The notes beneath the pieces are model-generated. The model ran no database searches. It was not told the DNA's origin and saw only the letters and a list, made by a program, of their open reading frames with translations. A DNA stretch of 60,740 bases, counting the filler. It is 4 parts of 4 records of this genome, joined end to end, with 100 filler letters (N's around TTAATTAATTAA, not from the genome) between each part and the next. Parts side by side here need not be neighbours in the genome. Positions count along the whole stretch, not along the records: positions 15,130 to 46,618 come from SRR20825019_2812; 3 more parts are not named here. One strand, 5' to 3'. Shown here piece by piece: positions 5,725 through 52,367 of the stretch. Both the position numbers and the translations under genes were made by a program. Each line of letters begins with the position of its first letter. Positions within the stretch are counted from its first letter, which is position 1.

Positions 5725-5913
5725 AGTGCAGAGTCGTTTGGCTTCACCCCCAATGTAAATCTATTCTTTAGTAAGCGCAAGTGTAGCGGGGCAACGCTCC
5801 GAGGACGCCTCAGACCGTCTTCCGGCGGCGCGGGTATTCACAGGCACATGGCCATGGCCATCACGCTGAGGTATACACCTCTATATATACAGGGGGCACT
5901 CGCCTAACAGTGC

Positions 5914-7192: not shown

Positions 7193-8488
7193 CCGGAACA
7201 GCAGCGTGCCTGCCCGGCACTCGGTCGTCGCGGGCCGGCTTGGGGCCGCGCCGGCGTCGTAGGCCCTTGCTGATGGCCCCCGGCGGGACCGGCAGCCGCC
7301 TGCGGGACCGGCAGCCGCCTGCGGGGCCGGCGGAGTCAGTGACCGGGTGCCCGGCGTGGCGCGCAGGACGTTGGCCGGCCTTGCTGGCTGGCGGGGCGAT
7401 GGAGGCATGGGATCAGCGGCCGGGTGGACCCGAGTGGTGGGGGTGCGTCGTTGGGACTTCACGATCATGATAAGCCGTTAGTAGTATCGCCACTGATCCT
7501 CGGGTGGCGGATTGGCATCGGGCCTGATGCCACTGTTGGTTGCAAAGGCATTTCAAATGGATTCACAGTCACTCACCGGATAGCCTTGGCCTGGTTGAAA
7601 CAGGCGTTGCGAACGGGAACTTTCATTTCACCCAAGCACAACGTATAGAAAGCTGCCTACCCTCGATAATACATTTATTGATTGCCACATGACAACTGTA
7701 CTTCTGTAACGTTTTGTACCCCCAGGTGCACAGTGCGGGCCCTTGCGCACCCGGCCCGCCGCCCGGCCGGAGTCATCAGTCAGTGCGCGCCGGGCCCGGC
7801 CGCCGGCCGCGGCGCCCGCCCCGGTCGCGGCGCGGGCAACGCCGACTCGCGGGGCCACGGCGAGCCCGGGGCCCGACCGGACGGCCCGCCGCGCCGGCCC
7901 GGGCCGGGGCGAGCAGGGCGGGCCGCACGGGGCTCAGGCGAGCGGGCACGCTCTGCATGACCCGCCCGGCCGAGCCGAGTCCCCCGGGGCCGGGCCGACT
8001 GGGTGGCTCCGCATCAACCGAACCGGTGTCACAGGCCTCGCGCGCGGCGGCCGGCAGTCCGGTCCGGCCGGCTCGCGCCGATCGGCTCGCGCGGCCCACT
8101 GCCTCGCCGTCCGCGGGCGAGGCGACTCGCCGGCCGCCCGCCCCCCCGGTCGGGCGAGCCAACAGTTTGACGGCCGCCACTAAGTGTCATGCCGTCATGG
8201 CCGCCCGTGAGTATGCCCGTCCAGCGGCCCGGTCGCCGCGCTCGTCACTGATGAGTGCATCGGTCGCCCGGGCGGGGCACCAGGCGTCCCGGGCCACAGG
8301 CCGGGGTTCCGCCGGCCCGACAGGAATCAGGAATTCTGGAGGTTCTGGAGCCCCGCCGGTGGCCCGACGGATAACCACTGGTACCAGTGAGCGGCATCGA
8401 ACCGCTTACACCATTCTTCATGTGTAAATAGCGGTGCTGAGCGTGGTTAGCGACGGTGATAGCTCTGCAGGTCTGGAGGCTCACGGAG

Positions 8489-11400: not shown

Positions 11401-13917
11401 ACGCACGCCCTTGAACGACTGATAGAGCTGCGGTCGCAGCAACGCAAAGACCTCGATGACATCCGTCAACCGGCGGCACGGGATGTGGACTTGGTTGTTG
11501 ACCCAATCGAGCTCCCCGACCAGTACAGCCCCCACAAGGACTTGCCTGCGCCTGACAAGCTCGTCTCTGAGAGTAGCACCGAAGGGGTCGTCGACGACAT
11601 CCGCGAGCGCCCATTGAACACTCTCACTGGTTTGTTGGCTCGGGTTCTGCACGACCTTGCGTGACACTCACATGCTTGCACAGATCATGAAAGAGAGTGG
11701 CGGAGGAAGACTGAATTCGAGGAGCACTGGGCGTCCACGCCGTACTTCAAGCCAATAACGACCGCTGCCGGCCGTGTGATGCCAGAGCACCCGCTCACTC
11801 AGCTCGGTGAGCACAATCTCAACTATGATCTCGAGGCACAAGCCCTTGCCGCCGCCAAGACTGATGCCGAGGTATTCCGGTTCGAATGAGGTATTCCCTG
11901 ACGGTGGCTGACCTTGCTTGCAGCTTCGGATGAAACTACGAATGCAGGGGGAGGCGGAAAACGTAACGCGAGCTAATAAGACGGTGGCATCGAGCCCCAA
12001 GAAAAAGGTCTCGGGTATTCTGGCAGGTAAGTTATGGTTGAACCCTGAAGTACTCCCAAGCGGGGGGGTGGAGGGAGGGGGGATTTGAGTGGATTTTATG
12101 ACACATGCATGCAGACCCGAGTGAGAAGCACCGACAAGCCAGGAAGGCTTCGATGAAGGAAGCGGCCAACGCCGAGGCAGATGTAGGGACTCTTATCCCG
12201 TGCACTTTCCACGGTGTTACTGATGCTGATGGGTTAGGTTGCTGCCACGGGGGAAGCGGGCGCAGGGAGTGTCACTGCCGGGGCTTTCTCCTCCCTTCTG
12301 GCTAAGGGATGGGGTTATGAGAAGATGGACTACAAAGTTATCAATGTGGGCACCGGTGATGCCAGGCACAAGTTCAAGTACAGGGTAAGTACTACTGCAC
12401 CTTTGACGAGGGCATTCTGACGAAGACCAGTTTGATGATGGTGTTATGGGCCCGGCGCGTGCCTCGGTGGCTGAAAGGATCAGCAACATCAATGAACTGA
12501 CGAGGCCATCCACCGCCCCGTCATCAAGGTCTCCTCAGTACAAGGTTCATGGGACAAGCCTTCATCAGGCCGTGCAGTCGCCTGTGGAGACTGATGCCGA
12601 CAAAGATAGTGAGGAAGGCAGCCCCAAAAAGGTGGCGCGGCCACCCACGGGGTCGGTGCGCCGCATCAATGCGGGACCGCGGGCGATGCAGATCAGAGCC
12701 CAGGTAAGGATGATGACTTCTCCGGTGCCGAGGTGGCTCATGTGCTCATGCAGGAGGCTATTGAGCACGCCAAGGCCAAGTACACAGCACAACACCCCGA
12801 GATGGATACCTTTGTCAATCGTGTTTTCAAGGCCGGAGGGCGTCAGCCGTGTGAGGCATGTGTACACGACGATGTGCCGGGATTCCTTGAAGATCCGGAG
12901 GTACTGCGAGAACATAAACCTGTGGTACGTAATCGGATGTGATCCGGTGTATCTATCGTGACCCTGGTGGGCAGGAGCGCGATGATGGATGGGTCTTCAA
13001 GCCCAAGATCAACGGCGTCCGCCATTCACTGGAAGACTTTGATGGTAATAATGCCGCAAAGATGGCGAGTACGTTCAGGTAAGAACGTCTCAGTCGCTGA
13101 TGCAACGCTGCTCATCCATGGCTGCATAGGTCGTGTGAGATCTTTTTCTTGTATGTTTTGCGCAAGGGGACAACGGACCAGCGCCTCTGTGCCGCGGAGT
13201 GCATGCGGCGGCTGGATATATCCTCCTTCTACAAGGACTTGATTGCGACGCTCCGCGACCCCGAGCCCGCACTACGCTGCAAGATACTGGAGTGTTTGCG
13301 CGATATTCGCCAACCCAGTGACATCCGTTTCATGATAGCTGAGGTGGGCATTCTTTCAAGCTCTGTGATAATTTCTTCTGACGAAAACGAATCCAGGCTA
13401 GCGTACCTCTATTGAACGACGAGGAACCCACGGTGAGGGCGGTGGCTGCTGAGTGCCTGGCGGCGTGCGGATTCCCGGAATACGCCAAGGATATAGCCGC
13501 CCTCTTGACCACAGAGAGCAACTCGCGGGTGGTGCGTGGGGTCGTGGATGCGTTGTCCGTCCTAGGATGCGAGCAAGAGGACATTGCCAAGGCAATTCCT
13601 CTCTTGACGCGGCCGGCGTGCGGTGTGAGTGGCGCCGTAGAGAAGATGCTGGTGCGACTGGCGCCCAAGAACTTCCCTCTCTTCTATGATGAGGTAGTGG
13701 CTGAGTGCAAGGCGGCCATGGCGGCCAAGACGGTGGCACCGTGGAAGGTGGGTGTAACGAAGTGGAGGTGGGCCCGCGAACTGACACCACAGTGGTGCTT
13801 GGTGTCTAGGTGCAGGGAATTTTAGACCAGGTCCAAGAGGCAACGGTCAAGCTGCGCATCGGAAGCAGGACTCATCAGTACACACGCCAGGATTACGCCT
13901 CACAGGTCAAAGGGTGA
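8489..13917 (+). CDS. Large multi-exon protein (possibly two genes): low-complexity middle, C-terminal HEAT/ARM-like repeats
   Basis: Successive + strand ORFs are linked by short introns. HEAT-like segments include LRDPEPALRCKILECL, LNDEEPTVRAVAAECL and TESNSRVVRGVVDAL. Last exon GILDQVQ...SQVKG ends at TGA 13915-13917. Confidence 0.55.
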
Positions 13918-14101
13918 CAACACAAGATAAACAAGCACTAACAGGAGATAACACCGGCGAATGGCTGACAAAATTGTTATTAATCCTCCCTTGCATTCAG
14001 CAGCGTCTCAACCAGCTTCATCTTCTATCAATCGTTCCATCAGCTCCAGTCATGCGGCTCCACCAAATTCGAGATCTATAAGGTTGCGAAGGCGGGGCCT
14101 C

Positions 14102-14870
14102 TTACATGGTAAGCTCCATGATGGCGTTGACAATATCACCGTTGTTAGCCTTGATGGCCTTGACGGCCTTGGCGCGGGTGACACCGGACTGGGACATGAC
14201 GAGCTCAATGTCCTTGGCCTCAACACCGGTCTCATCAACCTCGCCATCATCACCCTCATCAGCCTTGGCCTTGGCACCGTCGGCGGCGGCCTTGGGGGCC
14301 TCGTCGCCAGCGGCGGCGGCAAGCTTGGAGGCGGCCTCCTGGGCGGCACGCTGGTTCATGTCCTCGATCTTGGCCTCACCGAAGATGACGTAGGTGTCAG
14401 AGGCAGGGGACTTGTACACCTCGGGGTTCTCGATGTTGAACAAGAGCTGCAGACGACCCCGTCAGCCCCAGTCACAACGCGGATCCTTACAAACACATAT
14501 CTCCCCCAGCCCTCCTCTCATAATTAATCTCATAATTCTCCCCGCTCCGTAAAGCATAACCAAGACAACTAACACGCCATATGCAAAGTCACTTACACCG
14601 CGGCCCTTCTTGATGGAGACACGGAGAACACCAGGGTAGGACTTCATGCCAAGCTTGAGGAGGGCCTTGCGGGCCTTCTTCTCACCACGGCTCTGCACGC
14701 GACCAGTCAGCACACGCACGCCTCCTGTGGGACGATACTAAATCACACACCTGCTTGGATCCGTCCTCACCCTCGGCACCAGCCTCGGGGGCACCCTCCT
14801 CCAATCCGGGCATCTCGTCGTCAGAGGAAGACTCCTCGTGCTCCTCAACCTTGGGGTTCTTGTCGGCCAT
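14102..14870 (-). CDS. NACA: Nascent polypeptide-associated complex alpha subunit (3 coding exons: 14870-14751, 14692-14597, 14446-14102)
   Basis: Motifs QSRGEKKARKALLKLGMK and NPEVYKSPASDTYVIFGEAKIED, plus the UBA tail DIELVMSQ...DIVNAIMELTM. Introns at 14693-14750 and 14447-14596; a further 5'UTR intron at 14882-14938. Confidence 0.95.
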
Positions 14871-15000
14871 TTTTTAACTATCTATTGCTTCAGGTTAGGA
14901 CAACCACAAAATAGCGCACTGAGTATAGAGTGACTCACCTGGGAGTATTACACTGACGAATACAAATTGTAGCTGTTCATATATAAAATTGAAACGCTGG

Positions 15001-15029
15001 TCCATCCATCCGTCCATCCATCCATCCAT
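15001..15029. repeat. (TCCA)n microsatellite at contig end
   Basis: tccatccatccgtccatccatccatccat runs directly into the N linker. Confidence 0.9.
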
Positions 15030-15129
15030 NNNNNNNNNNNNNNNNNNNNNNNNNNNNNNNNNNNNNNNNNNNNTTAATTAATTAANNNNNNNNNNNNNNN
15101 NNNNNNNNNNNNNNNNNNNNNNNNNNNNN
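15030..15129. other. Artificial contig linker
   Basis: N44-TTAATTAATTAA-N44 (stops in all six frames). Composition switches from eukaryotic GC-rich to bacterial AT-rich. Confidence 0.98.
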
Positions 15130-16697: not shown

Positions 16698-16729
16698 TAA
16701 CTTTGATAGTATCAAATGATAGTATCAAA
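16698..16729 (+). promoter_or_regulatory. Bacteroidota -7 promoter (TAACTTTG) overlapped by tandem palindromic operator TGATAGTATCA x2
   Basis: Copies at 16704-16714 and 16717-16727, immediately before ATG 16730. Confidence 0.7.
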
Positions 16730-17692
16730 ATGACACCTCCATACGAAGTCACTCATCAAATTCTAAAATTGATTAGCTCAATATCTGAGAAAATCGGACA
16801 AATAAATGCCAAGTTTTTAAATAGACCATCTCCAAAACTTAGAAAGGAAAACCGAATTAAAACCATTCATTCATCGCTGAGCATAGAAGGTAATACGCTC
16901 ACAGAAGAGCAAATAACCGCTTTATTGGATAATAAAAGAATCGTTGGTCCTATTAGAGATGTCACGGAGGTTATGAACGCCATAAAAGTTTATAGCAACT
17001 TGAGTTCTTATGATCCATTCTCTCAAAGTTCATTTTTAGAAGCGCATAAAGAAATGATGGAAGGATTAATCAATTCCGCTGGAGAGTATAGAAGAAAGGG
17101 AGTTGGGATCGTAAAAGGGGATAAAGTAGTGCACATGTCGCCTCCTGCAGACAGGGTGGCATTCCTTATGTCGGATTTGTTCGACTATCTTCAGAATTCA
17201 GAAGAAATCGAGCTCATAAAAAGTTGTGTTTTTCACTACGAGATGGAATTTATTCACCCATTTGACGACGGAAACGGTCGAATGGGAAGACTTTGGCAAT
17301 CGTTAATACTCATGGAATCTTTTCCTGTGTTTGAATTTATTCCATTTGAAAGTCTTATTAGTAGTGGACAAAGTGAGTATTATGCCGCCTTAGCTGAAAG
17401 TGATAAACAAGGAAAATCAACACCTTTCATTACCTACATGCTGGCAACTATTGATCAATCGCTGTATGAAATGTTGAATTTCAAGAGTAGAATAATGACA
17501 TCTGAGGATAGAATTATGTATTTCTCGGAGATTACTAGCGATTTTTTTACGCGTAAGAATTATATGTTCACTTTCACAGATATCTCTTCGGCAACAGCTA
17601 GTAGAGACCTAAAACTTGGAGTGCAACTTGGAATCTTTGTAAAAGAGGGCGACAAGAAAAATACTACTTATTCTTTGAGAGGTAAATCATAG
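16730..17692 (+). CDS. Fic family protein with C-terminal winged HTH
   Basis: Fic motif HPFDDGNGRMGR, inhibitory motif SLSIEGN, C-terminal ISSATASRDL HTH. Confidence 0.92.
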   Translation: MTPPYEVTHQILKLISSISEKIGQINAKFLNRPSPKLRKENRIKTIHSSLSIEGNTLTEEQITALLDNKRIVGPIRDVTEVMNAIKVYSNLSSYDPFSQSSFLEAHKEMMEGLINSAGEYRRKGVGIVKGDKVVHMSPPADRVAFLMSDLFDYLQNSEEIELIKSCVFHYEMEFIHPFDDGNGRMGRLWQSLILMESFPVFEFIPFESLISSGQSEYYAALAESDKQGKSTPFITYMLATIDQSLYEMLNFKSRIMTSEDRIMYFSEITSDFFTRKNYMFTFTDISSATASRDLKLGVQLGIFVKEGDKKNTTYSLRGKS

Positions 17693-17719
17693 TCGTTTTC
17701 GAGAAAGTGGTCATAGAAT

Positions 17720-17752
17720 AAAAAAGGCCTTGACAGTAATCGTCAAGGCTTT
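17720..17752. terminator. Hairpin terminator between convergent genes
   Basis: AAAAAAGGCCTTGAC-AGTAATC-GTCAAGGCTTT. Confidence 0.75.
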
Positions 17753-17773
17753 AAATTGCTGATAATCAACGAA

Positions 17774-18055
17774 CTATTCTACTGTAATGCAACCATCTTT
17801 GATTGTTACCTTCGCTCCGTCTTTAACTTTAACCCATCCGCAAGAAGTTTTAATTTCCACTACAGATGCGCTCGTTTGGATAGAAGTAGACCCAGACGTA
17901 GAACTATTAAATTCTACTTTTTGAGTAGAGCCGTTCGATCTAACTTCCATTGTATGTTTTTTAGAATCTTTGTTGTAGTACTTGATTGTGAATGCACTTG
18001 CTACGTTCGCTAGAAAAATAAAAGCCAACGATAAAAACATCATTTTTAATTTCAT
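17774..18055 (-). CDS. Small secreted hypothetical protein (93 aa)
   Basis: Signal peptide ending ASA; beta-rich mature part with two Cys. Confidence 0.75.
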   Translation of the reverse strand: MKLKMMFLSLAFIFLANVASAFTIKYYNKDSKKHTMEVRSNGSTQKVEFNSSTSGSTSIQTSASVVEIKTSCGWVKVKDGAKVTIKDGCITVE

Positions 18056-22698: not shown

Positions 22699-22735
22699 AA
22701 AAAAGAAAGACTGTCCTCTCAGACAGCCTTTCTTC
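22699..22735. terminator. Bidirectional terminator
   Basis: AAGAAAGACTGTC-CTCTCA-GACAGCCTTTCTT between convergent genes. Confidence 0.7.
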
Positions 22736-22757: not shown

Positions 22758-23234
22758 TTACTTCTTTTTATTTCTCAGTCCATCACTCACGCCGAGTAAA
22801 AAGATCAAGCCATAAACAATCGGAATTATTGGAATTGCTTGTATTGCGCCAGGTCCTGAGTTTGGTGAACAACCGACGTCTGTTTTAATGGCATTCATTG
22901 CGAATTTAGCTTCTGGAAGTGCTGCATAAACGTCTTTCAACGAAGTGTGTATCGCATCGAAATCCTCCATTCTTTTAACCGAAGGAATGATCTTTTCGGT
23001 CAGACTTTTTTGCAAATCAACAGCGGTATAGGGATAGTCTGTACTAAAATCTTTTGATCCTATGCTTGACCCCTTCATGTAGTAGTTGAACAAAAATGGA
23101 AGGAGTTCAATCCACCAATCAGGAGTTGAGATACATTCCGTATTTGTCAATAACTGTTTTGTCTGAAGACTTCCGCTTGAAGACTTTCCGCGAAGGAAAA
23201 GTTCAACATTTCCAAGTGATAATATTTCATTCAT
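22758..23234 (-). CDS. Hypothetical protein (~158 aa) with C-terminal hydrophobic GxxxG tail; paralog of next gene
   Basis: Start MNEILSLG; tail IPIIPIVYGLIFLLGVSDGLRNKKK. Confidence 0.8.
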   Translation of the reverse strand: MNEILSLGNVELFLRGKSSSGSLQTKQLLTNTECISTPDWWIELLPFLFNYYMKGSSIGSKDFSTDYPYTAVDLQKSLTEKIIPSVKRMEDFDAIHTSLKDVYAALPEAKFAMNAIKTDVGCSPNSGPGAIQAIPIIPIVYGLIFLLGVSDGLRNKKK

Positions 23235-23253
23235 GATTTCTGTTTTTAATGTC

Positions 23254-23724
23254 TTACTTACCACCAAAAAAGTAGCCTATACCATATCCAATTGCGTACA
23301 CCGCTACAGCTCTAACTACAATTACAGCAATCACCGGCGGAATCATCATAAGTGTTGGATCACTGCTGTTTCCAAGACTTTCTTTCACTTTGTCACTGTA
23401 TTCAGCAACAAGCATTTTCATCTCTGGGTATTCGTAAAAAATTTCCTTGACGATCGTATCTGCTTCTTCAACGCTGGTCGCTTGTTTCAATTTTGGGATA
23501 AGTTGATTTTCAATACGGAAACCCAACTCTTTCACGGAATCAGGAGTTTGATTGACGCTCGCATTTTTAACCAATTCATTTGAACGCGCAAATAGGTCGA
23601 ACATTGGAGGAAAGAAGAAATCAAAAATCGGTGGCCATTTGATGCAGCCGTCTGTTCTGAAGTCGTTAGGAGATTGTTTCTTTAAGATCAATTCAAATTC
23701 TCCAAGTGATAATAAATTACTCAT
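23254..23724 (-). CDS. Hypothetical protein (~156 aa) with C-terminal hydrophobic GxxxG tail
   Basis: Start MSNLLSLG aligns with the paralog; tail IPPVIAVIVVRAVAVYAIGYGIGYFFGGK. Confidence 0.8.
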   Translation of the reverse strand: MSNLLSLGEFELILKKQSPNDFRTDGCIKWPPIFDFFFPPMFDLFARSNELVKNASVNQTPDSVKELGFRIENQLIPKLKQATSVEEADTIVKEIFYEYPEMKMLVAEYSDKVKESLGNSSDPTLMMIPPVIAVIVVRAVAVYAIGYGIGYFFGGK

Positions 23725-23803
23725 ATTAGTTTTTTTTAAGTTGCCTACTCTATGAAGGACTTTTCGGCTTTCGTCCTGATGAATTTGCATCCAATCATTG
23801 ATG

Positions 23804-23831
23804 AGTGCCGTTCAGTTCAAGAACCTAACCA
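23804..23831 (-). promoter_or_regulatory. Putative ECF-sigma promoter TGGTTAG-N17-CACT
   Basis: Same motif and spacing as the sites at 28346-28373 and 28397-28424. Confidence 0.75.
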
Positions 23832-24014
23832 TGAATGTGTTTTTAAAAAAAATATTTTTTTAATAGGCTGTGAGTCAGTTGTTTATAATAGTGAGAAATA
23901 CTTCTATCCGCCACTATTTTATCATTGAAATGGGAATTATTGTTGAACTTACTTAGATTCGAACTTGTGAAAACAGTACATTAGATAATGGAAAATCGCG
24001 CAACGGAAGATTTC

Positions 24015-26783
24015 CTACTTGGACAATTGTGCTCTTCGTTTCAGTTTAATTAGGACGATCAGCAGAAAAATTCCAACCGTGGAGCCACCAAGTATCCACC
24101 AATTCCCCCAAGAAATATGGGTGTTGAGCGAAAGTTGATTCGAGCCTACCAATACCATGCTTGACCAATAATGTGGGTGCGCGCTAAATTCGTCGACGTT
24201 TTCGTTGCTCAAATACTGGCGCTTCGCGAAGGTCAGCGCTTTACTTGGGTTGTTTGCAGGTAATCTTTTATAAAAATCACTTAGAATTTCACTGTTCGCT
24301 GCGTGATTTACTTTCCAGAGCGATCCCATAATATTTCGACTCCCCGTTTGCGCAAAACTTTTAGACAAACTCATTACTCCTTCGCCTTTCATATAATCGC
24401 CCGAGCCAGTTTCGCATGCGCTTAGAACGATTAATTCAGGTGCACAATCGAGCGTCGCTAACTCGGAAGTCAATAGGTGACGTTTATTGATTGGGTCTTT
24501 ACCAGAAAAAGCGATGGAAGCTTGATGGAAGCGCTCGTCCCACGTTGTCGCATGTGTTGAAAGGTGAAGGATACGATAATAGGCTGCGTTCGCAATGAAT
24601 TTTTTCTTCGTCGCATCTTTCCCCAACAAGGAAATTCCACCCAATTTCAATCCTGCGTTGATTTCACTTTCCGAATACGGCAATTCAGCGTACTCTGAAC
24701 CATTTTTAAAGAGTGGAGCAATGCCTAAAAAATTTTCTTTGAATTGATTTTGGTGATGAGGCTTCATCAAACGCTTCATAGAATAAGCATACCTGATTTC
24801 ATAATTTCTGACGAGGTAATCTAGTTTCTTGAAATTGGTTCCTTTTCCTTTCGCAAATGCTTCAAACGGCAAAAGTGCGAGCGGTCCGTCGGGAATAATG
24901 AGTAGCTCGTGTTGTGAAAGATACGTTTCAAAAGGCTTTATAAAAGCTGAATAACAGCCAACAGCAGCACGTTTGTAGGAAGTGAATGCACCGTAATCAG
25001 GTGTCGCTAATTGTGTTCTAAGTATGTTTAAGCGGTTACTTAAGGTCTCCGAAACGGACTCAATATGTAGGTAAATTTTTCCCTTAATAATTCCAAAGCA
25101 ATACACATCTTGACTGCCGAAATAGTAGGTGATGGTGTTGACGGGAAATTTACGAATGAAACGGTCAAAATCACGCGTGTCAAAGGAGTTTGTTGTCGCC
25201 ATATTTCTATAAATGGCGGGATATTTCTTCTTTACAATCTCCGTAAGAAGCAATAGTTCTTGACTTAATTGAAAGTCCTGCTCTTTCAGAAATTTCATGG
25301 AAGCACCTTCGTTGTTAAGTCCCGCTTTGGACAATTGCGCTTGAATGGATTCTGAATAACTTCTGTATCGAATCAACTCTTGGATTTCCTTTGGTAATGA
25401 TTGCCGATTTTTCAGTGCACTGTCAAAGTTTGACTCGGATAAAAGAATCCCTTTCGTCTTTTCTGTCAATAAAACACCTTTCAGCAACCAGGATTCATCT
25501 TTTGAAAGCGCATAAAGTGATGTGATTACTTGAAGTGCCTCCTCACCAGTATCGTGTAATTCTCGAATGAATGACAGCTTTGAATCGAGATTCGTATATT
25601 CTCTTCTGTAAAGTCCCTCAGCCAAAAAGTAATATTCGTAATGTCTATAAGAATGTTCTAAATGGCCCTTCATCTTCTCTTTCTCGCCAAAAACACGGTA
25701 GGCTTCTGCTTTCTTCAGCAGCGCTTCCAAAATAATTACCTCGGGATATAATTGAGAAATGTTCGGAAGTTCATGATCCGATGTTGGATGGAAGCGAATA
25801 ATGACAGATTTAAGTGCCGATTGATAATGTGCAAGCGCTTCACTTGGATTTCCCTGTTTCAAAAGATTCTCTCCGCGGGCTAAACATAATTTACCCCAAG
25901 TTCTGTGTTGCCTTTCCGGTAGACACACCGTTAATTTGTTCTCGGCGAGCATGAAGTTGCGCTGGGCTTCTACAAAGTCACCTTTTTTGGTTAGAATCAT
26001 TCCAAGTGAAATATACGCACCAGCCTGATATCCCATGATTCGATAATCTCCTTCGATGCGTGAAAAATAAGCAAGACTGCTCATCGCGAAGCGGATTCCG
26101 GTGTCATATTCTTCGGTGTTCAGTGATGCAGCGGCAGCATTTGAAGCGAGTAATCCTTTCGCTTCATTGGATTCTCCAGAAAGTTGTAAGCCCTTGTTGT
26201 AACAATCAAGCGCACTTATAAAATCTCCTTTATTCGCGAATGCTAATCCTAAATCATTATAGCCTAAACCGATGAAATGTTTGTTGTCGACAGTAACGTT
26301 TGCTTCAATAAACTTAGTCAACAATCGAATGGCTTGCTCATTTTCTCCCAATCGAGTGTAAATATTTCCCAATGGGTGATATACGTGATTAATTACATTG
26401 AGGTCCAAATAATTGAATGCTTCAAAATCAATTAATACGTTTAGATAATCTTCTTTTGCTCCGAAATAATCGCCTCCTTCTGATTTGACATAACCTCTGT
26501 TCGTAATTGCCCAACACCAGGCTATTTTTTCTGCTTGAGTTGAAGGTTTGCGCCAGTTCGTGCGCTCCATTTCATCAATAATAGAGATTGCTTTTTTATA
26601 TTCCAACGACGCCAAGTGCTGCTTCGCAATTGCTTTGTGCGCATTGATCCAAAGCTCTAGTTTCTTTTGCTTCCGATAGGTCTGAATTTCATGCTTTAGT
26701 GCATCAATGGGGGCATTCGCATGTGCAACACTTGTCGCTAACGAAACAAAGACTAAAGCGACAAGAATCAGGGATTTCAACAA
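24015..26783 (-). CDS. Exported TPR-CHAT (caspase-like) protease with C-terminal membrane anchor
   Basis: Signal peptide ending AHA; TPR repeats; CHAT motifs LIIPDGPL, ILHLSTHA (His), VLSACETG (Cys), SLWKVN, HPHYWS; C-terminal TM followed by KLKRR. Confidence 0.93.
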   Translation of the reverse strand: MLKSLILVALVFVSLATSVAHANAPIDALKHEIQTYRKQKKLELWINAHKAIAKQHLASLEYKKAISIIDEMERTNWRKPSTQAEKIAWCWAITNRGYVKSEGGDYFGAKEDYLNVLIDFEAFNYLDLNVINHVYHPLGNIYTRLGENEQAIRLLTKFIEANVTVDNKHFIGLGYNDLGLAFANKGDFISALDCYNKGLQLSGESNEAKGLLASNAAAASLNTEEYDTGIRFAMSSLAYFSRIEGDYRIMGYQAGAYISLGMILTKKGDFVEAQRNFMLAENKLTVCLPERQHRTWGKLCLARGENLLKQGNPSEALAHYQSALKSVIIRFHPTSDHELPNISQLYPEVIILEALLKKAEAYRVFGEKEKMKGHLEHSYRHYEYYFLAEGLYRREYTNLDSKLSFIRELHDTGEEALQVITSLYALSKDESWLLKGVLLTEKTKGILLSESNFDSALKNRQSLPKEIQELIRYRSYSESIQAQLSKAGLNNEGASMKFLKEQDFQLSQELLLLTEIVKKKYPAIYRNMATTNSFDTRDFDRFIRKFPVNTITYYFGSQDVYCFGIIKGKIYLHIESVSETLSNRLNILRTQLATPDYGAFTSYKRAAVGCYSAFIKPFETYLSQHELLIIPDGPLALLPFEAFAKGKGTNFKKLDYLVRNYEIRYAYSMKRLMKPHHQNQFKENFLGIAPLFKNGSEYAELPYSESEINAGLKLGGISLLGKDATKKKFIANAAYYRILHLSTHATTWDERFHQASIAFSGKDPINKRHLLTSELATLDCAPELIVLSACETGSGDYMKGEGVMSLSKSFAQTGSRNIMGSLWKVNHAANSEILSDFYKRLPANNPSKALTFAKRQYLSNENVDEFSAHPHYWSSMVLVGSNQLSLNTHISWGNWWILGGSTVGIFLLIVLIKLKRRAQLSK

Positions 26784-26841
26784 CCAAACACCGTTTTAAA
26801 TGCACTGCGAAAATAAACAATTAGTTTGTACAACTCAACGC

Positions 26842-26872
26842 AAAAAAAGGACCTCACATCAATGAAGTCCTT
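26842..26872 (-). terminator. Rho-independent terminator between the 478-aa gene and CHAT
   Basis: Minus strand AAGGACTTCA-TTGATG-TGAGGTCCTTTTTTT. Confidence 0.75.
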
Positions 26873-26891
26873 CTAAAAAGTGTTTTTTAGG

Positions 26892-28328
26892 CTATTTTTT
26901 TTGCTTTTTTCGACTCAAGAACAGGAGTAAAAGTAAGAGTACAATAATTCCTAATAGAATATATACAATCCAACAGCCGCACCATTTTGACGGCTTTTCA
27001 TTAGTCAAAACAGGGTTGGGACACGTCGAAACAGCAATATTGGTGATTACAGGATCGTTTTCATCGAAAATAATGGCTGCTTTTGCCGTTATATCTTCAC
27101 CAATCACGTAATTATTTTTCACTTTCACTTCAAACGAAAACATATCTCTCGTTGTAGCGGGATCGTTTAAGAGCGTATCAGACAGTCCACTGAGGACTAG
27201 GTTGTGAAACTCGAAAATCACTTTGTGATTGCTCTGATCGATCCAATAATTTGCTTGGGTATTTGAAATAGTTGAAGGAAATCCAACAAGCGCATTGGAT
27301 TGATTTAAGGACATACCGTGCGGAAGTCGTGTTAAATGAATCGTTGACAAATCATGCATTTCATCAAGGCTTACTTCCACTTTTACATAACGTGTTTCCT
27401 TCTCACCCACATTTTGAAAGTGAATATTGTAGTTGAGGGTTTTACCGCCAACGACACAGTCGGTGTTTTCGGGAGTTACTTCAATTCTATTCGGATCGTG
27501 GGACCCGCTAAATTTCATTGCGATCGATGCCGTTTCTTCCGTGAAAATAGGAGAAGGAACTAAATCCGAACGGTGAAAGGTTATCGCAACGGGAAAACTT
27601 CCCGACTTTTCTGAACCTTTGTATCTAAATGGAAGTAACATTGACCGCTCTTCACCTGGATTAATTGGCGATCCGATATTCCATTTCAATTCGTGCGTGT
27701 TTCCTGCAAATGATTCGCAATGTGCCAAAAATGAGGGACGTGTGTTGTCATTCATCGCGTACTCAAAATCAGCGGAGTGCTCCCCAAAATCAAGGGTGAT
27801 ATAGCTTTCAGGATTCAGAACATTCCCACCTTCAGGATTTCCGTAAGTCACAATAAAATATACAATGTCACCTAAAACAGCATCACGGTAGTTGCGAATG
27901 TCGATATAATTTGAATTCGTTACGCCGTTCAGTATTTTCGGCAAACTTGGAACAAATGGCTGACTTAAATTTCCGTAGTTAATGTCTACACCAACCACAG
28001 GTGGAGGTCCCGTATTTCCATAATTTTCGGTAACAATTCCGAAAATTTTGTAGGACGAGGGAGGGAAGTTGGTTTTGATTTGACTAGGATTATGGAATGA
28101 ATGGGCTGCAGCCTGCCCCTGAATTATTCGGTAACCACCATCGCCGAACCACCATAAAGTGGTAAATACCGACCGTGGATTTGTGGGTTGAAATGCCGGA
28201 GTAATTTGAAATCTATCGCGATTTCCTGGAGTGTGTTGCACGGACTGCTGACTGAGCGTGAAACCGCTAAAAATCAGTAAAAATGCGGTTATCAAAGATG
28301 TAATTAAACGTTTAAACATAGGATTCAT
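26892..28328 (-). CDS. Exported, C-terminally anchored protein with PKD-like and DUF7619-like domains
   Basis: Signal peptide; WWFGDG; SHDPN...YNIHFQNVG...AAIIFDENDPVITN; C-terminal TM followed by RKKQKK. Confidence 0.8.
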   Translation of the reverse strand: MNPMFKRLITSLITAFLLIFSGFTLSQQSVQHTPGNRDRFQITPAFQPTNPRSVFTTLWWFGDGGYRIIQGQAAAHSFHNPSQIKTNFPPSSYKIFGIVTENYGNTGPPPVVGVDINYGNLSQPFVPSLPKILNGVTNSNYIDIRNYRDAVLGDIVYFIVTYGNPEGGNVLNPESYITLDFGEHSADFEYAMNDNTRPSFLAHCESFAGNTHELKWNIGSPINPGEERSMLLPFRYKGSEKSGSFPVAITFHRSDLVPSPIFTEETASIAMKFSGSHDPNRIEVTPENTDCVVGGKTLNYNIHFQNVGEKETRYVKVEVSLDEMHDLSTIHLTRLPHGMSLNQSNALVGFPSTISNTQANYWIDQSNHKVIFEFHNLVLSGLSDTLLNDPATTRDMFSFEVKVKNNYVIGEDITAKAAIIFDENDPVITNIAVSTCPNPVLTNEKPSKWCGCWIVYILLGIIVLLLLLLFLSRKKQKK

Positions 28329-28345
28329 TTTTATTATCCATCGTT

Positions 28346-28373
28346 AGTGCAATTCGACGGCTAAATCTAACCA
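28346..28373 (-). promoter_or_regulatory. Putative ECF-sigma promoter TGGTTAG-N17-CACT
   Basis: Located just upstream of the 478-aa gene start (28328). Confidence 0.75.
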
Positions 28374-28396
28374 AAAACAAATTATTTTTTTCTAAT

Positions 28397-28424
28397 TGGT
28401 TAGGGTTTCTTTCTTCGAGAGACT
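28397..28424 (+). promoter_or_regulatory. Putative autoregulatory ECF promoter TGGTTAG-N17-GACT
   Basis: Upstream of the sigma gene. Housekeeping-type TAnnTTTG boxes also occur at 28425-28432 and 28465-28472. Confidence 0.72.
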
Positions 28425-28479
28425 TACCTTTGAAATCAAAAAAAAGTCTGCGCACGGAAACGCGTATATTTGTCAAACT

Positions 28480-29073
28480 ATGCCAAGATTATTTAGAACA
28501 TATTCTGATCAGGAAGTTATAGAAGGAATCAAACAAGGAGGCGCGTCGGAAGACAAGGTGATTTCGTTCTTACTTAAAAAGAATGAATCTCCCATTTATG
28601 GCTATGTATTGAAGAATAGTGGTAATCGAGAAATGGCTTCGAGTATTTTGATCGAGGGAATTATGGAATTGTTGTTCAATGTGAGAAAAGGAGCATTTCG
28701 CGGTGAAAGCAGCTTGAATACCTATCTTTTTTCCATCTGCAAAGGACTTTGGCTCAAACACCTGCGTAAAGAAAAGAAACACGCGGATTGGAATGATCAG
28801 TTGGATGAAGCTTCGGAAGAAGATACGATCAAGGAACTTTACGGCGATTTAAAATTGAGCTTAGAAGCGGTTCTATCACATATCGGAGCAAGCTGTAAAA
28901 AAGTACTGGAATTGTGGAGTATGCATTATTCCATGACCGAAATTGCTCTACACATGTCCTATAAGAATGCGCAAATAGCTATGAATAAGAAAAATAAGTG
29001 TTTGACTGCACTTAAATCGCATGTCGCGTCGAATCAATCGTTGAAGGAGCACTTATTAAATTATCTGCAATGA
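28480..29073 (+). CDS. ECF-type RNA polymerase sigma factor
   Basis: Region 2: SSLNTYLFSICKGLW. Region 4: CKKVLELW...SMTEIA...KKNKC. Confidence 0.9.
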   Translation: MPRLFRTYSDQEVIEGIKQGGASEDKVISFLLKKNESPIYGYVLKNSGNREMASSILIEGIMELLFNVRKGAFRGESSLNTYLFSICKGLWLKHLRKEKKHADWNDQLDEASEEDTIKELYGDLKLSLEAVLSHIGASCKKVLELWSMHYSMTEIALHMSYKNAQIAMNKKNKCLTALKSHVASNQSLKEHLLNYLQ

Positions 29074-29801
29074 TGGAGACGGAAAAGAGAACGGAAGTAA
29101 TCGAAAATTATCTAAGTGGGAGGTTATCGGATGTCGAACGAATGGCATTTGAGAAGACACTTTCCGAAGATCCGCTTCTGCAGGAAGAAGTGAAAATTCA
29201 GCGCGGTTTAGGTCTTTTACTCGAAGCACGTGCGAAAGATCTGGAACGCCAACGGATTCATCAACTGCATCGTGGTGCAACTACTTCTTTTCCGTGGAGA
29301 AAAGTTATCGCTGCTGTTTTCATCTTAGCGTTGATCTCTGTGCCGGCTTATCTCTGGTTACAAACGTCGAATTCTACCAATTCTGTTGAGTTAGCCGCAG
29401 AATACTTCGCTCCGTATCCTGATAGAATTACACAAATGAGTCAAGGCGATAATGGTGATTTAGAAATAGCAATGAAACAGTACAATGCTGGAAATTATGC
29501 CTTGGCAATACCTTATTTTGAACAAGTTTCAAGCGATTCTTTGCCGATAGTGACCATCTACCTTGCCGTTTGCTATGTCGAAAATAATCAACCCGAAAAA
29601 TCAGTAGTACTGCTCCAATCTACTCTTGATTCGGGAGTGGAAAGCGCGTATATTCCTACGATCAATTGGTACTTGATACTTGCGCAGTTGAAAAATGATG
29701 ATGCTAAAAGTGCACAAAAACTCCTAGAGCACTATGTGAAGTCAGGTTATTCCTACAACCGTGAAAAAGCCATTGTGCTGAAGGAAGCGCTCAATCCCTA
29801 A
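29070..29801 (+). CDS. Putative anti-sigma factor (cytoplasmic N-domain, TM, periplasmic TPR)
   Basis: IENYLSGRLSDVERMAFE; TM KVIAAVFILALISVPAYLWL; TPR-like C-terminus; ATGA overlap with sigma. Confidence 0.8.
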   Translation: MMETEKRTEVIENYLSGRLSDVERMAFEKTLSEDPLLQEEVKIQRGLGLLLEARAKDLERQRIHQLHRGATTSFPWRKVIAAVFILALISVPAYLWLQTSNSTNSVELAAEYFAPYPDRITQMSQGDNGDLEIAMKQYNAGNYALAIPYFEQVSSDSLPIVTIYLAVCYVENNQPEKSVVLLQSTLDSGVESAYIPTINWYLILAQLKNDDAKSAQKLLEHYVKSGYSYNREKAIVLKEALNP

Positions 29802-29872: not shown

Positions 29873-32155
29873 TCAATACAATTTCAATGTTTTTAAAGTT
29901 TCGAATGCATCCACATATTCAGTAAGCTTCGTCACCAACGCAAGTATTTCTTCCGATTTCGCCTTTGGAAATAGTTTATTGATCTGATCGAGTGACTGTC
30001 TAACTGCTTCTTCCGCTTCGGTTTTGTTTCCTTTCTCATAGTTTTCCGCCATCACTTTCATAGATTGATTGGCGATGGCAACTGCGAGAATTTTTTTGTG
30101 TTCTTTGTCGAGGCTCATGTCCAATTCACCTGTGGCGTCTGTCCATTCTGGATGAATTTTCTTCTCCATTCGAACTTCTTTTTTCGTGTCTGGATCGATG
30201 TAACTGAGGGTAACAACCACTTTTTCATTGATAATTTCTCTCGTTGGATTAATTAAATCAAACTTTATCAGCGCCATTTCATTCAGTCCAGGGAAGAGAT
30301 GAGGAATCGCAACGGTCATCTTGCCAGAAGTCACTTTCTCTTGCGAATAACCGAACAATTGACGATACACAATTTGGTCATTGTATTTCACTTCGAGCAT
30401 TGCCTTTTCTGCGATAGGATAAAGAATGGATTGAAGCTCGTTCATGAATGCTGATTGAATATTGCTTCCAGTTCCTGCGAAATGCATTAATCCTCCACCC
30501 GCAGAGGCCAATTGCGACAATAATTCCTGATTGTAGTCCGTGCCAACACCGACAGCCGACAGTTCAATTCCTTTACTTATGTTAGATTTCGCCATGGCGA
30601 TGACTTCTAATGGTGGTCGAGAACCATAACCGTCTGTGAGTAGAATTACACGATCCACATAACCTTTTGAAGCGTTCTTCGCAACCTCCTTGAACCCAAG
30701 TTCCAAGCCATCGTAAATAACCGTTCCACCACCAGCTTCTATGGCGTAAATGATATCAATGACCTTCTTTTTATCTCCAATTGGAGCTGCAGGAACCGCA
30801 ACGGTACTTTGATCGTCGAATACAATCACAGAAACGATGTCATTTTCTTCTAATTGTTGAACAAAAAGAATCATCGCTTTTTTCAATTCATCTATTCGAT
30901 CTTCGCCCATCATGGAACCGCTTTTATCCACCACAAAACAGATGTTCAGCGGAGTTGGATTTTTCCTTCCGAGTTTAGATTTAACTTTCAAGCCAATTTC
31001 GAGCAAGGCTTCTTTAGATTGACTATTGAATTTATTTCCCCAGTTCAAATAGAAATCAATATTGCCATTCACAGGCTCCGGATATTGCTTATCTACAAAA
31101 TTTTGAACGTCGTAAGCGACGAGGTCTTTTACTTTTGGAATAAAGTTCTCGATGTTTTGTAAGCGGGGATCAGGAGTATACAAAACAGAAATCGTTTGTT
31201 CCGCGATTCCTTTTACCTGAGAAAGATCTATTTGACTCGCATCGCGTTGGTAAGTAAAATCGATGAAATACTTTTGTTTGATAGGAAGCATGAGTATCGC
31301 TTCACCTTGATCGTTCGTTTTCACTTTATACACGTCGTTCGATTTCAGCATGCGAACGTAAACGTCTTCATTAATTCCGCCATTTTCTCCACCCCGCACT
31401 TTTAGTTTTATTTTCGCGTGCGAAGAACTAGGCTTGATATCTTTCGTGGCATTTTGAACAATAAATTTATCCTCTTTTTTCTCCTTGAAATCGCGCGGTT
31501 GATACAACATGCTCATCGTTGTATTCATCGGAAGGGGAGAAAGCGCAAGTCTTCGGATAGATTCTACGCCATCAATGTCTATTTCGTATTCTAATCCAAC
31601 GGGAATTTTAAACATTGCCGCCCCACTGTTGTTGGTGCGAGAAGTATAAATTGTTTTTGTCGCAAAATTACAGAGTTTGACTTCTACGCCTGGATATACT
31701 TTTTTCGATCGATCTTGTAAAACAATGTTGAGGATCGTCTCCTTCGCCGTTGGTTCTTCCATCGGGCTAATTCTATCCTGAGCTACTTCGAGAAAATCGA
31801 TGGTTCTACGATCGGGGACAGATTTATTTTGCAACGCATAATTTTCAGGGTCATACGTAAAAACATCATTCGCCGAACCTCTTCGCGTCCCTTCAATTTT
31901 TATACAATTTCGCATGTCTCCAATAGATCCAACCCAACTTCCGTAGGTGAAAGTGTGCGTTAATTTCCCTTGATTATCCGTTTTAAGCGGTAAATGCTCG
32001 TAAGAAGTAGTTTCAATGAATACTACGTCCCGATTCACGTCAGGAGTTCCCTTGGTTGTTTTTACAGCAAGGGAGTATAGAAATTCGCGATCTTGAGCAT
32101 ACGAGAAACCAGAAATAATAAAACAGAGGAAAAGAGTAGAGAGTAATGCTTTCAT
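29873..32155 (-). CDS. Exported vWA-domain protein (YfbK-like) with N-terminal beta-sandwich repeats
   Basis: MIDAS motif VDKSGSM, GGTVIYDGL, LLTDG; signal peptide. Confidence 0.85.
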   Translation of the reverse strand: MKALLSTLFLCFIISGFSYAQDREFLYSLAVKTTKGTPDVNRDVVFIETTSYEHLPLKTDNQGKLTHTFTYGSWVGSIGDMRNCIKIEGTRRGSANDVFTYDPENYALQNKSVPDRRTIDFLEVAQDRISPMEEPTAKETILNIVLQDRSKKVYPGVEVKLCNFATKTIYTSRTNNSGAAMFKIPVGLEYEIDIDGVESIRRLALSPLPMNTTMSMLYQPRDFKEKKEDKFIVQNATKDIKPSSSHAKIKLKVRGGENGGINEDVYVRMLKSNDVYKVKTNDQGEAILMLPIKQKYFIDFTYQRDASQIDLSQVKGIAEQTISVLYTPDPRLQNIENFIPKVKDLVAYDVQNFVDKQYPEPVNGNIDFYLNWGNKFNSQSKEALLEIGLKVKSKLGRKNPTPLNICFVVDKSGSMMGEDRIDELKKAMILFVQQLEENDIVSVIVFDDQSTVAVPAAPIGDKKKVIDIIYAIEAGGGTVIYDGLELGFKEVAKNASKGYVDRVILLTDGYGSRPPLEVIAMAKSNISKGIELSAVGVGTDYNQELLSQLASAGGGLMHFAGTGSNIQSAFMNELQSILYPIAEKAMLEVKYNDQIVYRQLFGYSQEKVTSGKMTVAIPHLFPGLNEMALIKFDLINPTREIINEKVVVTLSYIDPDTKKEVRMEKKIHPEWTDATGELDMSLDKEHKKILAVAIANQSMKVMAENYEKGNKTEAEEAVRQSLDQINKLFPKAKSEEILALVTKLTEYVDAFETLKTLKLY

Positions 32156-46618: not shown

Positions 46619-46718
46619 NNNNNNNNNNNNNNNNNNNNNNNNNNNNNNNNNNNNNNNNNNNNTTAATTAATTAANNNNNNNNNNNNNNNNNNNNNNNNNN
46701 NNNNNNNNNNNNNNNNNN
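46619..46718. other. Artificial contig linker
   Basis: N44-TTAATTAATTAA-N44. Confidence 0.98.
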
Positions 46719-46719
46719 G

Positions 46720-46887
46720 GCTGAGGAGGCCGCGCCTGTAGAGGAAGGCGAGGAGAAGAAGAAGAAGAAGAAGAAGAAGAACGATTATCGCGAGGAAGGC
46801 GAGAAAATGACTCAGTATGGAGTGAAACAATCGCGCCTTGAAACCTATAAGAATGCGACCGGCGCAGGGAAGAAAAACAAGAAGTAA
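46720..46887 (+). CDS. 3' end of a Lys/Glu-rich eukaryotic protein (partial)
   Basis: Open frame AEEAAPVEEGEEKKKKKKKKNDYREEGEKMTQYGVKQSRLETYKNATGAGKKNKK*; not in the ORF track. Confidence 0.55.
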   Translation, partial: AEEAAPVEEGEEKKKKKKKKNDYREEGEKMTQYGVKQSRLETYKNATGAGKKNKK

Positions 46888-47090
46888 ACCCGTCATGACA
46901 TCTGTACATCCTTGTGTGTTTCAGTTTCATTCTAGGAGTGCAACCCGAAAAATCAAACGGCGGTTCCACCATCATGGCGTCCAGGCCTGATCACAAGGCC
47001 TGCGGGCATCTCGCCAGAGCAATGACACGGGCGGCCCCGTCTCCCACGATCACCCACACAAGACAGGCACCTCAACCAAGCCGTGGTCCA

Positions 47091-52344: not shown

Positions 52345-52367
52345 TAGCGCACATTGCCCGATATGCG

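Follow-up and report, generated by a model that had tools for sequence, protein, structure and literature searches.

The stretch of DNA analysed here (the window; 60,740 nucleotides, nt) carries at positions 22758 to 29801 a cluster of six genes, three of which probably form a Bacteroidota envelope signalling module. The three encode a sigma factor of the extracytoplasmic function (ECF) type, a single-pass anti-sigma factor and TPR-CHAT, a protein that joins tetratricopeptide repeats (TPRs) to a caspase-like CHAT protease domain. A preliminary description of this DNA had reported six clustered genes, and all six open reading frames (ORFs) were found where it had placed them. Judged by gene neighbourhoods in related genomes, the conserved core is the sigma factor, the anti-sigma factor and the anchored TPR-CHAT protein. 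The core genes and the gene lying among them are as follows.

24015 to 26783, minus strand: TPR-CHAT caspase-like protease with predicted signal peptide and C-terminal transmembrane anchor, 922 aa (Pfam, alignments, hydropathy)
26892 to 28328, minus strand: predicted exported and C-anchored DUF7619 protein with tandem Ig-like domains and a degenerate PKD-like motif, 478 aa
28480 to 29073, plus strand: divergent ECF-type sigma factor, 197 aa (orthologue alignment, profile and atlas matches)
29070 to 29801, plus strand: predicted single-pass anti-sigma factor with periplasmic TPR domain, 243 aa (overlap with the sigma gene, hydropathy, Pfam)

A CHAT-seeded profile search (five sequences) of genome contigs yielded five usable loci, L001 to L005. 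Two further matches, L006 (an archaeon) and L007 (Spirochaetia), covered the TPR part only (E 6e-5 and 2e-4) and were excluded from the neighbourhood counts. A tblastn search of plasmids with the CHAT protein returned 69 records. From the 20 listed we used all eight Bacteroidota rows, which belong to Chondrinema litorale (five), Aureibacter tunicatorum (two) and Emticicia oligotrophica (one); the 12 non-Bacteroidota rows (cyanobacteria and Burkholderia), covering the CHAT domain only (30-39% coverage), were left out. The 14 loci examined are the window, L001 to L004 (Crocinitomicaceae), L005 (Saprospiraceae) and these eight listed Cytophagales plasmid loci.

A sigma gene and an anti-sigma-like gene adjoin the CHAT gene in 13 of the 14 loci. 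The window and all four Crocinitomicaceae loci share one layout, in which the sigma and anti-sigma genes diverge from the DUF7619 and CHAT genes (anti-sigma<-sigma<- ->DUF7619->CHAT), and their flanking genes differ. L005, on a 12.9-kb contig, carries a gene for a 717-aa PKD-DUF7619 protein and then CHAT; a sigma gene was not found on that contig. In all eight listed plasmid loci, CHAT is adjoined by a sigma-70-family gene and a gene for a protein of 233-253 aa; seven of these eight small neighbours have one transmembrane segment, and that of L012 fell below the hydropathy threshold. The window sigma factor matches every one of the eight plasmid sigma factors (E 1.4e-9 to 5.6e-24), the window anti-sigma factor matches five of the eight neighbours, and the 13 anti-sigma candidates can all be aligned end to end. 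Sigma, anti-sigma and CHAT genes follow each other in this order on one strand in L012, L013 and L015, and the L015 genes overlap by 4 nt at each junction. No homologue of DUF7619 or of the two remaining cluster genes, par1 and par2, was found in the eight listed Cytophagales loci. Because of the linkage in 13 of 14 loci and the three same-strand series, we favour CHAT as part of the switch. The preliminary description had stated that clusters of CHAT, sigma and TPR genes are not unique to this genome, which this survey bears out; carriers of the module include cultured Cytophagales and uncultured Crocinitomicaceae. A Bacteroidota triad of sigma, anti-sigma and CHAT was not found described in any paper in a check that covered the ECF classification (PMC7826278) except for its later groups.

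Pfam CHAT (PF12770) matches residues 611-881 of the TPR-CHAT protein with 162.2 bits (gathering score, 24; E 2.4e-47), and several TPR families match besides. The protein contains the dyad motifs LHLSTHA and LSACETG, whose H744 and C790 are invariant in an alignment of 13 CHAT sequences; the His/Cys dyad is conserved in 14/14 CHAT proteins of the loci examined. By hydropathy only, the N-terminus is hydrophobic at residues 1-19 and a C-terminal transmembrane segment spans residues 896-914, followed by the basic tail KLKRRAQLSK. Pfam, hydropathy and alignment therefore back the signal-peptide, C-anchored TPR-CHAT with an intact dyad of the preliminary description. The protein is predicted to be exported, and its C-terminal helix would tether it to the inner membrane on the outer face. 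Given the signal peptide and the C-terminal segment, it would share a compartment with the TPR domain of the anti-sigma factor. A complex prediction for CHAT residues 30-880 and the anti-sigma ectodomain (residues 98-243) scored 0.67, against 0.52 for a control in which the first chain was an unrelated protein, a difference that speaks neither for nor against binding.

The sigma ORF as listed runs from 28396 to 29073. Its start is probably at 28480: this is where the alignment with four orthologues begins, and a start further upstream would place the promoter-like site of the gene inside the ORF. The protein scored 40.2 bits with TIGR02937 (cut-off, 42.9) and 16.6-16.9 bits with Pfam Sigma70_r2 (gathering score, 24), and gave no match to r4. 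Its profile matched SigW weakly (E 9.7e-4), and in the protein atlas it scored 0.98 to Bacteroidota Sigma70_r2 clusters. The plasmid sigma factor of L015, a homologue at E 5.6e-24, passes both Pfam r2 (31.1) and r4_2 (32.4). We regard the window protein as ECF-like, that is, as a divergent two-domain ECF-type factor that falls under the curated cut-offs.

The anti-sigma gene overlaps the stop of the sigma gene by 4 nt, and the pairing of a sigma factor with a one-transmembrane protein recurs in L001 to L004. Hydropathy gives one transmembrane segment (residues 79-97), TPR_19 matches at 1.8e-5, and the anti-sigma domain model NF052375 matches residues 12-112 with 22.5 bits (cut-off, 100; E 9.3e-5). 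Residues 1-78 contain no Cys. The overlap, the single segment and the TPR match agree with the earlier claim of an ECF sigma factor translationally coupled to a one-transmembrane TPR protein. We infer that the anti-sigma factor consists of a cytoplasmic, sigma-binding N-domain, the transmembrane helix and a periplasmic TPR domain of ~145 aa. The motif YPDRIT-x-M (window 29415-29438; residues 116-123), 19 residues past the transmembrane helix, is kept unchanged in five anti-sigma orthologues with an overall identity of only 30-44%. It relaxes to Y-(E/Q)-(N/D)...R-S in the Cytophagales relatives and weakens to an aromatic/acidic pattern in the 13-sequence alignment. As a lead only, it may mark where a protease or a partner makes contact; it may also merely open the TPR fold.

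Three sigma-type promoter-like sites stand before genes of the cluster, and a terminator-like hairpin lies between two of its genes (scores are those of a position weight matrix, PWM).

28344 to 28373, minus strand: promoter-like site before the 478-aa gene, PWM 23.6; equivalent in L001 to L004
23802 to 23831, minus strand: promoter-like site before par2-par1, PWM 23.2
28397 to 28426, plus strand: promoter-like site before the sigma gene (putative autoregulation), PWM 17.7; equivalent in L001 only
26845 to 26874, minus strand: terminator-like hairpin between the DUF7619 and CHAT genes, 13-pair stem, then a T run

The consensus form of the motif is TGGTTAG-N17-(n)ACTnA. With a spacing of 16-18 (TGGTTAG-N16-18-ACTNA), it occurs three times in the 60,740 bases of the window, each time before a cluster gene, and shuffled sequences give an expectation of 0.02. 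Since the pattern was derived from these three sites, its recurrence in other genomes is the independent test. It stands before the DUF7619 orthologue in all four Crocinitomicaceae loci (L001 to L004) and, in L002 and L004, also just past CHAT, ahead of the next gene on the same strand. A loose regular expression gave 12 matches in 158 kb (window plus L001 to L005) versus 1.1 in Markov simulations; nine lay at the predicted upstream places, and the other three were intragenic GGTTAT variants in the window. A PWM built from nine sites ranked an untrained site of L002 (12892, just past CHAT) first, at 25.0, and its scores dropped from 17.7 to 15.9 before the best remaining match. It gave no sigma-type site before the LodA-like gene of L001. 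A terminator-like hairpin similar to that of the window occupies the same position between the DUF7619 and CHAT genes of L001.

The preliminary description had spoken of a visible regulon. The motif is indeed present before the sigma gene, the DUF7619 gene and the paralogs, but only the DUF7619 site is kept in 5/5 Crocinitomicaceae loci. The paralogs cannot be upheld as a conserved output, given that the genes in the slot behind CHAT are unrelated from one genome to the next. As far as site conservation indicates, the conserved regulon member is the DUF7619 gene and not the paralogs. Motif-like sites were also seen within the sigma coding region of L002 (~8008-8040, minus strand; PWM 13.6) and L003 (~7907-7939, minus strand; PWM 15.9), ~160-200 nt ahead of the start of the anti-sigma gene. 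They may represent promoters inside the sigma gene, or the resemblance may stem from the conserved codons for R-L-G-x-S-C...V-L-R-L-W.

The 478-aa protein has hydrophobic segments at both termini, of which the N-terminal one is signal-like and the C-terminal one a transmembrane segment (hydropathy). DUF7619 (PF24595) matches it with 74.2 bits (gathering score, 27; E 1.4e-20). The terminal segments and this domain support its earlier description as an exported, anchored protein. It shares the invariant motifs SHDPN, FQN-G and FD-N-P-TN with 19 relatives. An AlphaFold 2 model from a 20-sequence alignment (mean predicted local distance difference test score, pLDDT, 77.3) is all-beta, a string of beta-sandwiches ending in a transmembrane helix. 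Its fold matches are integrin alpha legs and the stalk domains of AgI/II (C123) and PrgB, at template-modelling scores of 0.2-0.3; scores this low are to be expected for multi-domain chains, and on this model we read the matches as generic Ig-like stalks. According to a prediction in PMC12617251, DUF7619 is a relative of DUF11 and a CnaA-like isopeptide domain. No paper on the function of DUF7619 was found in the literature searched. More distant relatives of ~650 aa have the order PKD-DUF7619-DUF7849, and in these a C-terminal DUF7849 replaces the transmembrane tail. A DUF7619 gene is present in 6/6 Flavobacteriales and Saprospirales loci and in 0/8 of the listed Cytophagales loci; the stalk is a lineage-specific addition to the module.

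Two details of this protein were observed in addition. Its C-terminal transmembrane segment starts with Cys-x-Cys-Trp and is followed by a basic tail (window 26892-26990); the variants of this motif are WCGCW in the window, WCSCW in L001, CWRCW in L004 and CCSICC in L003. The layout recalls tripartite sorting signals, and no NCBIfam model matched it. In SHDPNR (27486-27503), the residue after SHDPN is Arg in the window and its closest relatives and Lys in the wider DUF7619 consensus. If that Lys is the predicted isopeptide residue, the clade of the window may lack the bond.

The genes after CHAT are, to judge from the loci compared, variable, genome-specific cargo. The slot holds the paralogs in the window and nothing on the same strand in L003. 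In L001 (12968-16067), CHAT is followed by a LodA-like gene (LodA_N 2.7e-67, LodA_C 2.6e-34) and a flavoprotein LodB-like gene, in L002 by genes for a 362-aa protein, a TPR protein and an OmpA-like protein, and in L004 by a gene for a Cys-rich 417-aa protein. On the 15-kb Aureibacter plasmid pAT7 (L013, 5558-10599), a gene for a 49-aa Gly-Gly-type peptide comes directly after the sigma, anti-sigma and CHAT series, accompanied by genes for a peptidase-domain ATP-binding cassette (ABC) transporter, HlyD and TolC. L003 contains, at ~17640-17790 on the minus strand and behind a DUF805b RNA motif, an ORF of 47 aa that combines a leader of the Gly-Gly type with a Cys-rich core; two ~750-aa TPR proteins follow it, and this operon converges on the CHAT gene.

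The cargo of the window comprises the following features.

23742 to 23777, minus strand: DUF805b RNA motif (RF02914), leader of par2; 41.6 bits (gathering score, 35.6), E 2e-8
23254 to 23724, minus strand: par2, member of a rare unnamed family of ~150-aa proteins, 156 aa
22758 to 23234, minus strand: par1, predicted tail-anchored helical protein, paralog of par2, 158 aa
22699 to 22732, minus strand: terminator-like hairpin after par1, 11-bp stem, then T6 (read from the sequence)

The palindrome of the last feature is also listed on the plus strand (22711-22726). The start of par2 is placed at 23724 and not at 23790 because of the conserved N-termini of the pair, MSNLLSLGEFEL and MNEILSLGNVEL, and par1 begins 19 nt past the par2 stop. 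The two proteins are 22% identical (E 1e-4), with one C-terminal transmembrane segment apiece. A word-based homologue search with par2 gave no match and its look-alikes in the protein atlas scored 0.78 at most; a HMMER scan with a profile of the pair found 12 representatives at E <= 0.001 among 1.84 billion. Of the two orphan paralogs described previously, the paralogy stands, and the orphan status does not, since these 12 relatives exist. The family shares an N-terminal M-x-x-(I/L)-S-L-G-x-F-E-L, an EVYxAYPExK helix and a Gly-rich C-terminal transmembrane segment. The AlphaFold 2 model of par2 (pLDDT 77.3) shows a beta-hairpin, a four-helix bundle and a transmembrane helix; a fold search of the PDB with it gave nothing significant (best E 0.6, syntaxin 6).

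The pair had also been called bacteriocin-like. Gly-Gly-leader bacteriocins are made as short precursors with a leader ending in Gly-Gly and have a C39 peptidase ABC exporter nearby. In par1 and par2, no Gly-Gly follows the N-terminal M-x-x-(I/L)-S-L-G-x-x-E-L, and no C39-type peptidase ABC exporter was found among the contig ORFs scanned. With their 156-158 aa and the helical-bundle model, this leads us to drop the designation. The gene behind the DUF805b motif of the window has no Pfam family and is for this reason not a DUF805 gene. Matches to the motif in non-DUF805 leaders were seen in the window (23742-23777, minus strand), L004 (12638-12673), L002 (1265-1300) and L003 (17802-17834). Two of these four, in the window and L004, occupy the slot after CHAT and lie directly behind a sigma-type site there; upstream of the other two, such a site is absent. 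No paper on DUF805b biology was found in the literature searched.

We tentatively prefer, at somewhat below an even chance, a mechanism in which CHAT cleaves the anti-sigma factor as a site-1 protease and so frees the sigma factor. A periplasmic cue would engage the TPR parts, CHAT would cut the periplasmic part of the anti-sigma factor (site-1 cleavage), and an intramembrane protease would complete the process and release the sigma factor. The freed factor would read TGGTTAG-N17-ACTnA promoters, that of its own operon included. It would drive the DUF7619 gene, and through it CHAT by read-through or co-transcription (positive feedback), as well as the genome-specific cargo operon after CHAT, which in the window encodes the two tail-anchored proteins behind the DUF805b leader RNA. 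The scheme sets out from gene content, topology, the dyad, the conserved linkage and the conserved promoter-like sites, and adds to them the binding of sigma and anti-sigma factors, the cleavage by CHAT, the signal and the function of the cargo, which we infer. CHAT is placed on the input side because it is kept beside the sigma and anti-sigma genes when the rest changes, is the third gene of the series in three loci, retains its dyad and would share a compartment with its proposed substrate. Genes co-transcribed behind sigma/anti-sigma pairs, such as rseB and rseC, are often co-regulators. Several points weigh against this mechanism. The sole site kept in 5/5 loci precedes the DUF7619 gene with CHAT behind it (at a gap of 20-30 nt in L003 and L004), so that CHAT could be a mere sigma target. 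No sigma gene lies within 4.2 kb upstream or 5.6 kb downstream of the DUF7619-CHAT pair in L005, and nothing convincing of the window motif was found in the Cytophagales plasmid loci. A site upstream of the sigma gene itself is present in two of the five Crocinitomicaceae loci (window, L001), and the plasmid sample is small (three species, five of the eight loci from one strain). Moreover, even for the Myxococcus protein DdvA, cleavage of the anti-sigma part by CHAT is presented only as a proposal in the available part of its report (PMC11506125).

A possible but less probable reading is that CHAT and the DUF7619 protein are both outputs: the anti-sigma factor would sense the cue with its own TPR domain, and the protease/stalk pair would process envelope, surface or cargo proteins. 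The only promoter-like site kept in 5/5 Crocinitomicaceae loci precedes the DUF7619 gene, which CHAT follows on the same strand, L005 has the pair with no sigma gene nearby, and the ~650-aa PKD-DUF7619-DUF7849 relatives are structural envelope proteins, all of which suits this reading. It fits poorly with the eight listed Cytophagales loci, where CHAT adjoins the sigma and anti-sigma genes though DUF7619 is absent, and with the three loci where CHAT is the third gene of their series, once with a stop/start overlap; in the window and L001, a terminator-like hairpin also parts CHAT from the sigma-driven gene. The input and output roles of CHAT can both hold at once, which would give positive feedback. 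With either wiring, the module might be a defence or antagonism switch that senses envelope damage by phages or competitors and releases harmful cargo, which we consider unlikely. The LodA/LodB-like L-lysine oxidase genes after CHAT in L001, the Gly-Gly-type peptide of L013 with its peptidase-domain ABC exporter, HlyD and TolC, the plasmid location of 8/8 listed Cytophagales copies and, from the available part of PMC11506125, the control of a CBASS-CRISPR island (CBASS, cyclic oligonucleotide-based antiphage signalling system) by DdvS speak for it. The plasmid location, however, is a sampling effect, because that search covered a plasmid collection only. The six proteins have no PADLOC match, the search for sigma-type sites found none before LodA and none in the plasmid loci, and the cargo of L002 (362-aa, TPR and OmpA-like proteins) and L004 (Cys-rich 417-aa protein) has no evident harmful function.

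CHAT could instead act as a periplasmic co-sensor or co-anti-sigma factor that binds the anti-sigma TPR domain in the manner of RseB, its protease being aimed elsewhere or at itself and the anti-sigma factor escaping proteolysis. Both proteins carry periplasmic TPR modules and the linkage fits equally well, but the dyad is strictly kept in 14/14 proteins, arguing that catalysis matters, and we give this reading a very small chance. A chance adjacency of unrelated genes is scarcely credible in view of the synteny, with linkage in 13/14 loci across two bacterial orders and changing flanks, and with promoter-like sites shared between loci. The cleavage mechanism can also be put more boldly, as a 'caspase-gated' ECF switch, widespread in Bacteroidota and CRISPR-independent, in which a membrane-tethered periplasmic TPR-CHAT protein acting in trans cuts a TPR anti-sigma factor as its site-1 protease and the sigma factor fires a swappable slot of often antagonistic or membrane-active cargo; this generalization is rather doubtful. 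If true, such a 'caspase-gated' module would amount to an alarm system of the envelope, modular in build and sharing its logic with DdvA and craspase, with the LodA oxidase, the Gly-Gly peptides and their exporter, and the tail-anchored paralogs as examples of its swappable cargo.

The window joins four contigs by three spacers of the form N44-TTAATTAATTAA-N44 (N runs 15030-15129, 46619-46718 and 51780-51879). The cluster lies entirely inside a 31.5-kb Bacteroidota contig (15130-46618; ~39% G+C), whose Bacteroidota-type genes include those for trigger factor, SppA and proteins with type IX secretion system tails. Its nearest CHAT-protein relatives are from metagenome-assembled Crocinitomicaceae genomes and only 30-44% identical, and for this reason the host is a fairly deep-branching, unsampled member of the Crocinitomicaceae group. 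The other parts differ in composition. Positions 1-15029 have 45-63% G+C (2-kb windows), few recognisable bacterial ORFs and one guanylate-cyclase fragment, and positions 46719-51779 have ~47-75% G+C. Positions 51880-60740 have ~50% G+C and carry CbiMQ/ABC-ATPase cobalt-transport, major facilitator superfamily and MerR genes. G+C shifts sharply at the first two joins, and the parts look like they derive from different organisms. On the contig of the cluster, a Fic-domain protein is encoded 5 kb away (16703-17692, plus strand; PADLOC SoFic model, 2e-44), and the gene for a 760-aa VWA-domain protein (29873-32155, minus strand; no sigma-type site upstream) converges on the anti-sigma gene. A VWA-like DxSGS motif was also seen in the L004 cargo protein.

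The cluster had been described as CRISPR-free. No array-like repeats were seen at 15130-46618, no Cas family was found in Pfam, NCBIfam or PADLOC scans of the contig ORFs examined, and none of the six cluster proteins gave a PADLOC match, in agreement with that description. Membership of the window CHAT protein in Csx29 was rejected: it scored 18.7 bits with the NCBIfam Csx29 model (cut-off, 300), and no Cas gene or array was found on the contig.

The preliminary description had taken its logic from type III-E CRISPR loci, where Csx29 cleaves Csx30 and thereby controls a sigma factor. This precedent is correct (PMC10028731), but by profile comparison the nearest characterised system is DdvA/DdvS of Myxococcus. 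A profile of six CHAT domains searched against the PDB found DdvA chain 8rot_B as its best match, a weak one (E 9.5e-4, 21.6 bits), whereas the Csx29 chains gave E 0.19-0.46. As far as the available part of its report goes, DdvA of Myxococcus xanthus is a transmembrane anti-sigma factor with a fused periplasmic TPR-CHAT region and the ECF sigma factor DdvS (PDB 8ROT), its authors propose a cut by CHAT and then by RseP, and DdvA-like fusions occur only in Myxococcota and one Comamonas (PMC11506125). Both systems tie a periplasmic TPR-CHAT protein with a His/Cys dyad to an ECF-type sigma factor via a single-pass anti-sigma factor, and the proposed order, CHAT cut and then intramembrane proteolysis, is the same. 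Unlike in DdvA, the anti-sigma factor (243 aa) and TPR-CHAT (922 aa) of the window are encoded by separate genes on opposite strands, with 1.7 kb between the sigma and TPR-CHAT genes. TPR-CHAT has its own predicted signal peptide and C-terminal anchor, and the anti-sigma factor keeps only a small TPR ectodomain. As the N-domain of the latter contains no Cys, it has no CHCC zinc site. The window system also belongs to another phylum, and its predicted regulon is not a CBASS/CRISPR island.

Type III-E craspase comprises the TPR-CHAT protease Csx29 with Cas7-11, and the Csx30 inhibitor and CASP-sigma are encoded together with it, cleavage relieving the inhibition (available part of PMC10028731). 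The joint encoding of a TPR-CHAT protease, an ECF-like sigma factor and a sigma inhibitor is common to both systems, but craspase is cytoplasmic, RNA-guided and CRISPR-bound. In ECF54 of Actinobacteria, the neighbourhood contains CHAT-TPR, a subtilase and a carboxypeptidase-regulatory-like domain, according to the available parts of PMC8999054 and PMC7826278. There, too, an ECF sigma gene is conserved beside CHAT-TPR and a beta-sandwich protein, and proteolytic control is proposed. These sources describe ECF54 in another phylum, with no anti-sigma factor and a predicted GTATCAG / CTCC promoter. The CHAT-TPR context of ECF sigma factors has thus already been noticed for ECF54, though without an anti-sigma factor.

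In bacterial envelope signalling, the freeing of ECF sigma factors by proteases is a central theme. In the DegS-RseA-RseP-sigmaE and PrsW-RsiW-sigmaW systems, an extracytoplasmic site-1 protease cuts a single-pass anti-sigma factor and starts sigma release; in the window, that role would fall to a Cys protease of caspase fold that carries a TPR sensor, in place of a PDZ serine protease or membrane metalloprotease. CalpL-CalpT-CalpS of type III CRISPR is likewise a triad of protease, anti-sigma factor and ECF sigma factor encoded together. Cyclic oligoadenylate activates its protease, a Lon-SAVED enzyme of the cytoplasm, and the triad has neither CHAT nor a membrane step. We conclude that the window module is a split variant of the TPR-CHAT/anti-sigma/ECF theme, with protease and anti-sigma factor as separate proteins. 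A caspase-fold site-1 protease has so far been proposed solely for the fused DdvA of Myxococcus, and the split module offers a clean test bed in trans for caspase-type site-1 proteolysis, with a substrate of just 243 aa. Its short, recognisable promoter and swappable cargo slot give a direct route to the regulon, and the same route opens families of unknown function, namely the ~150-aa tail-anchored proteins, the membrane-anchored DUF7619 stalks and the DUF805b leader RNA.

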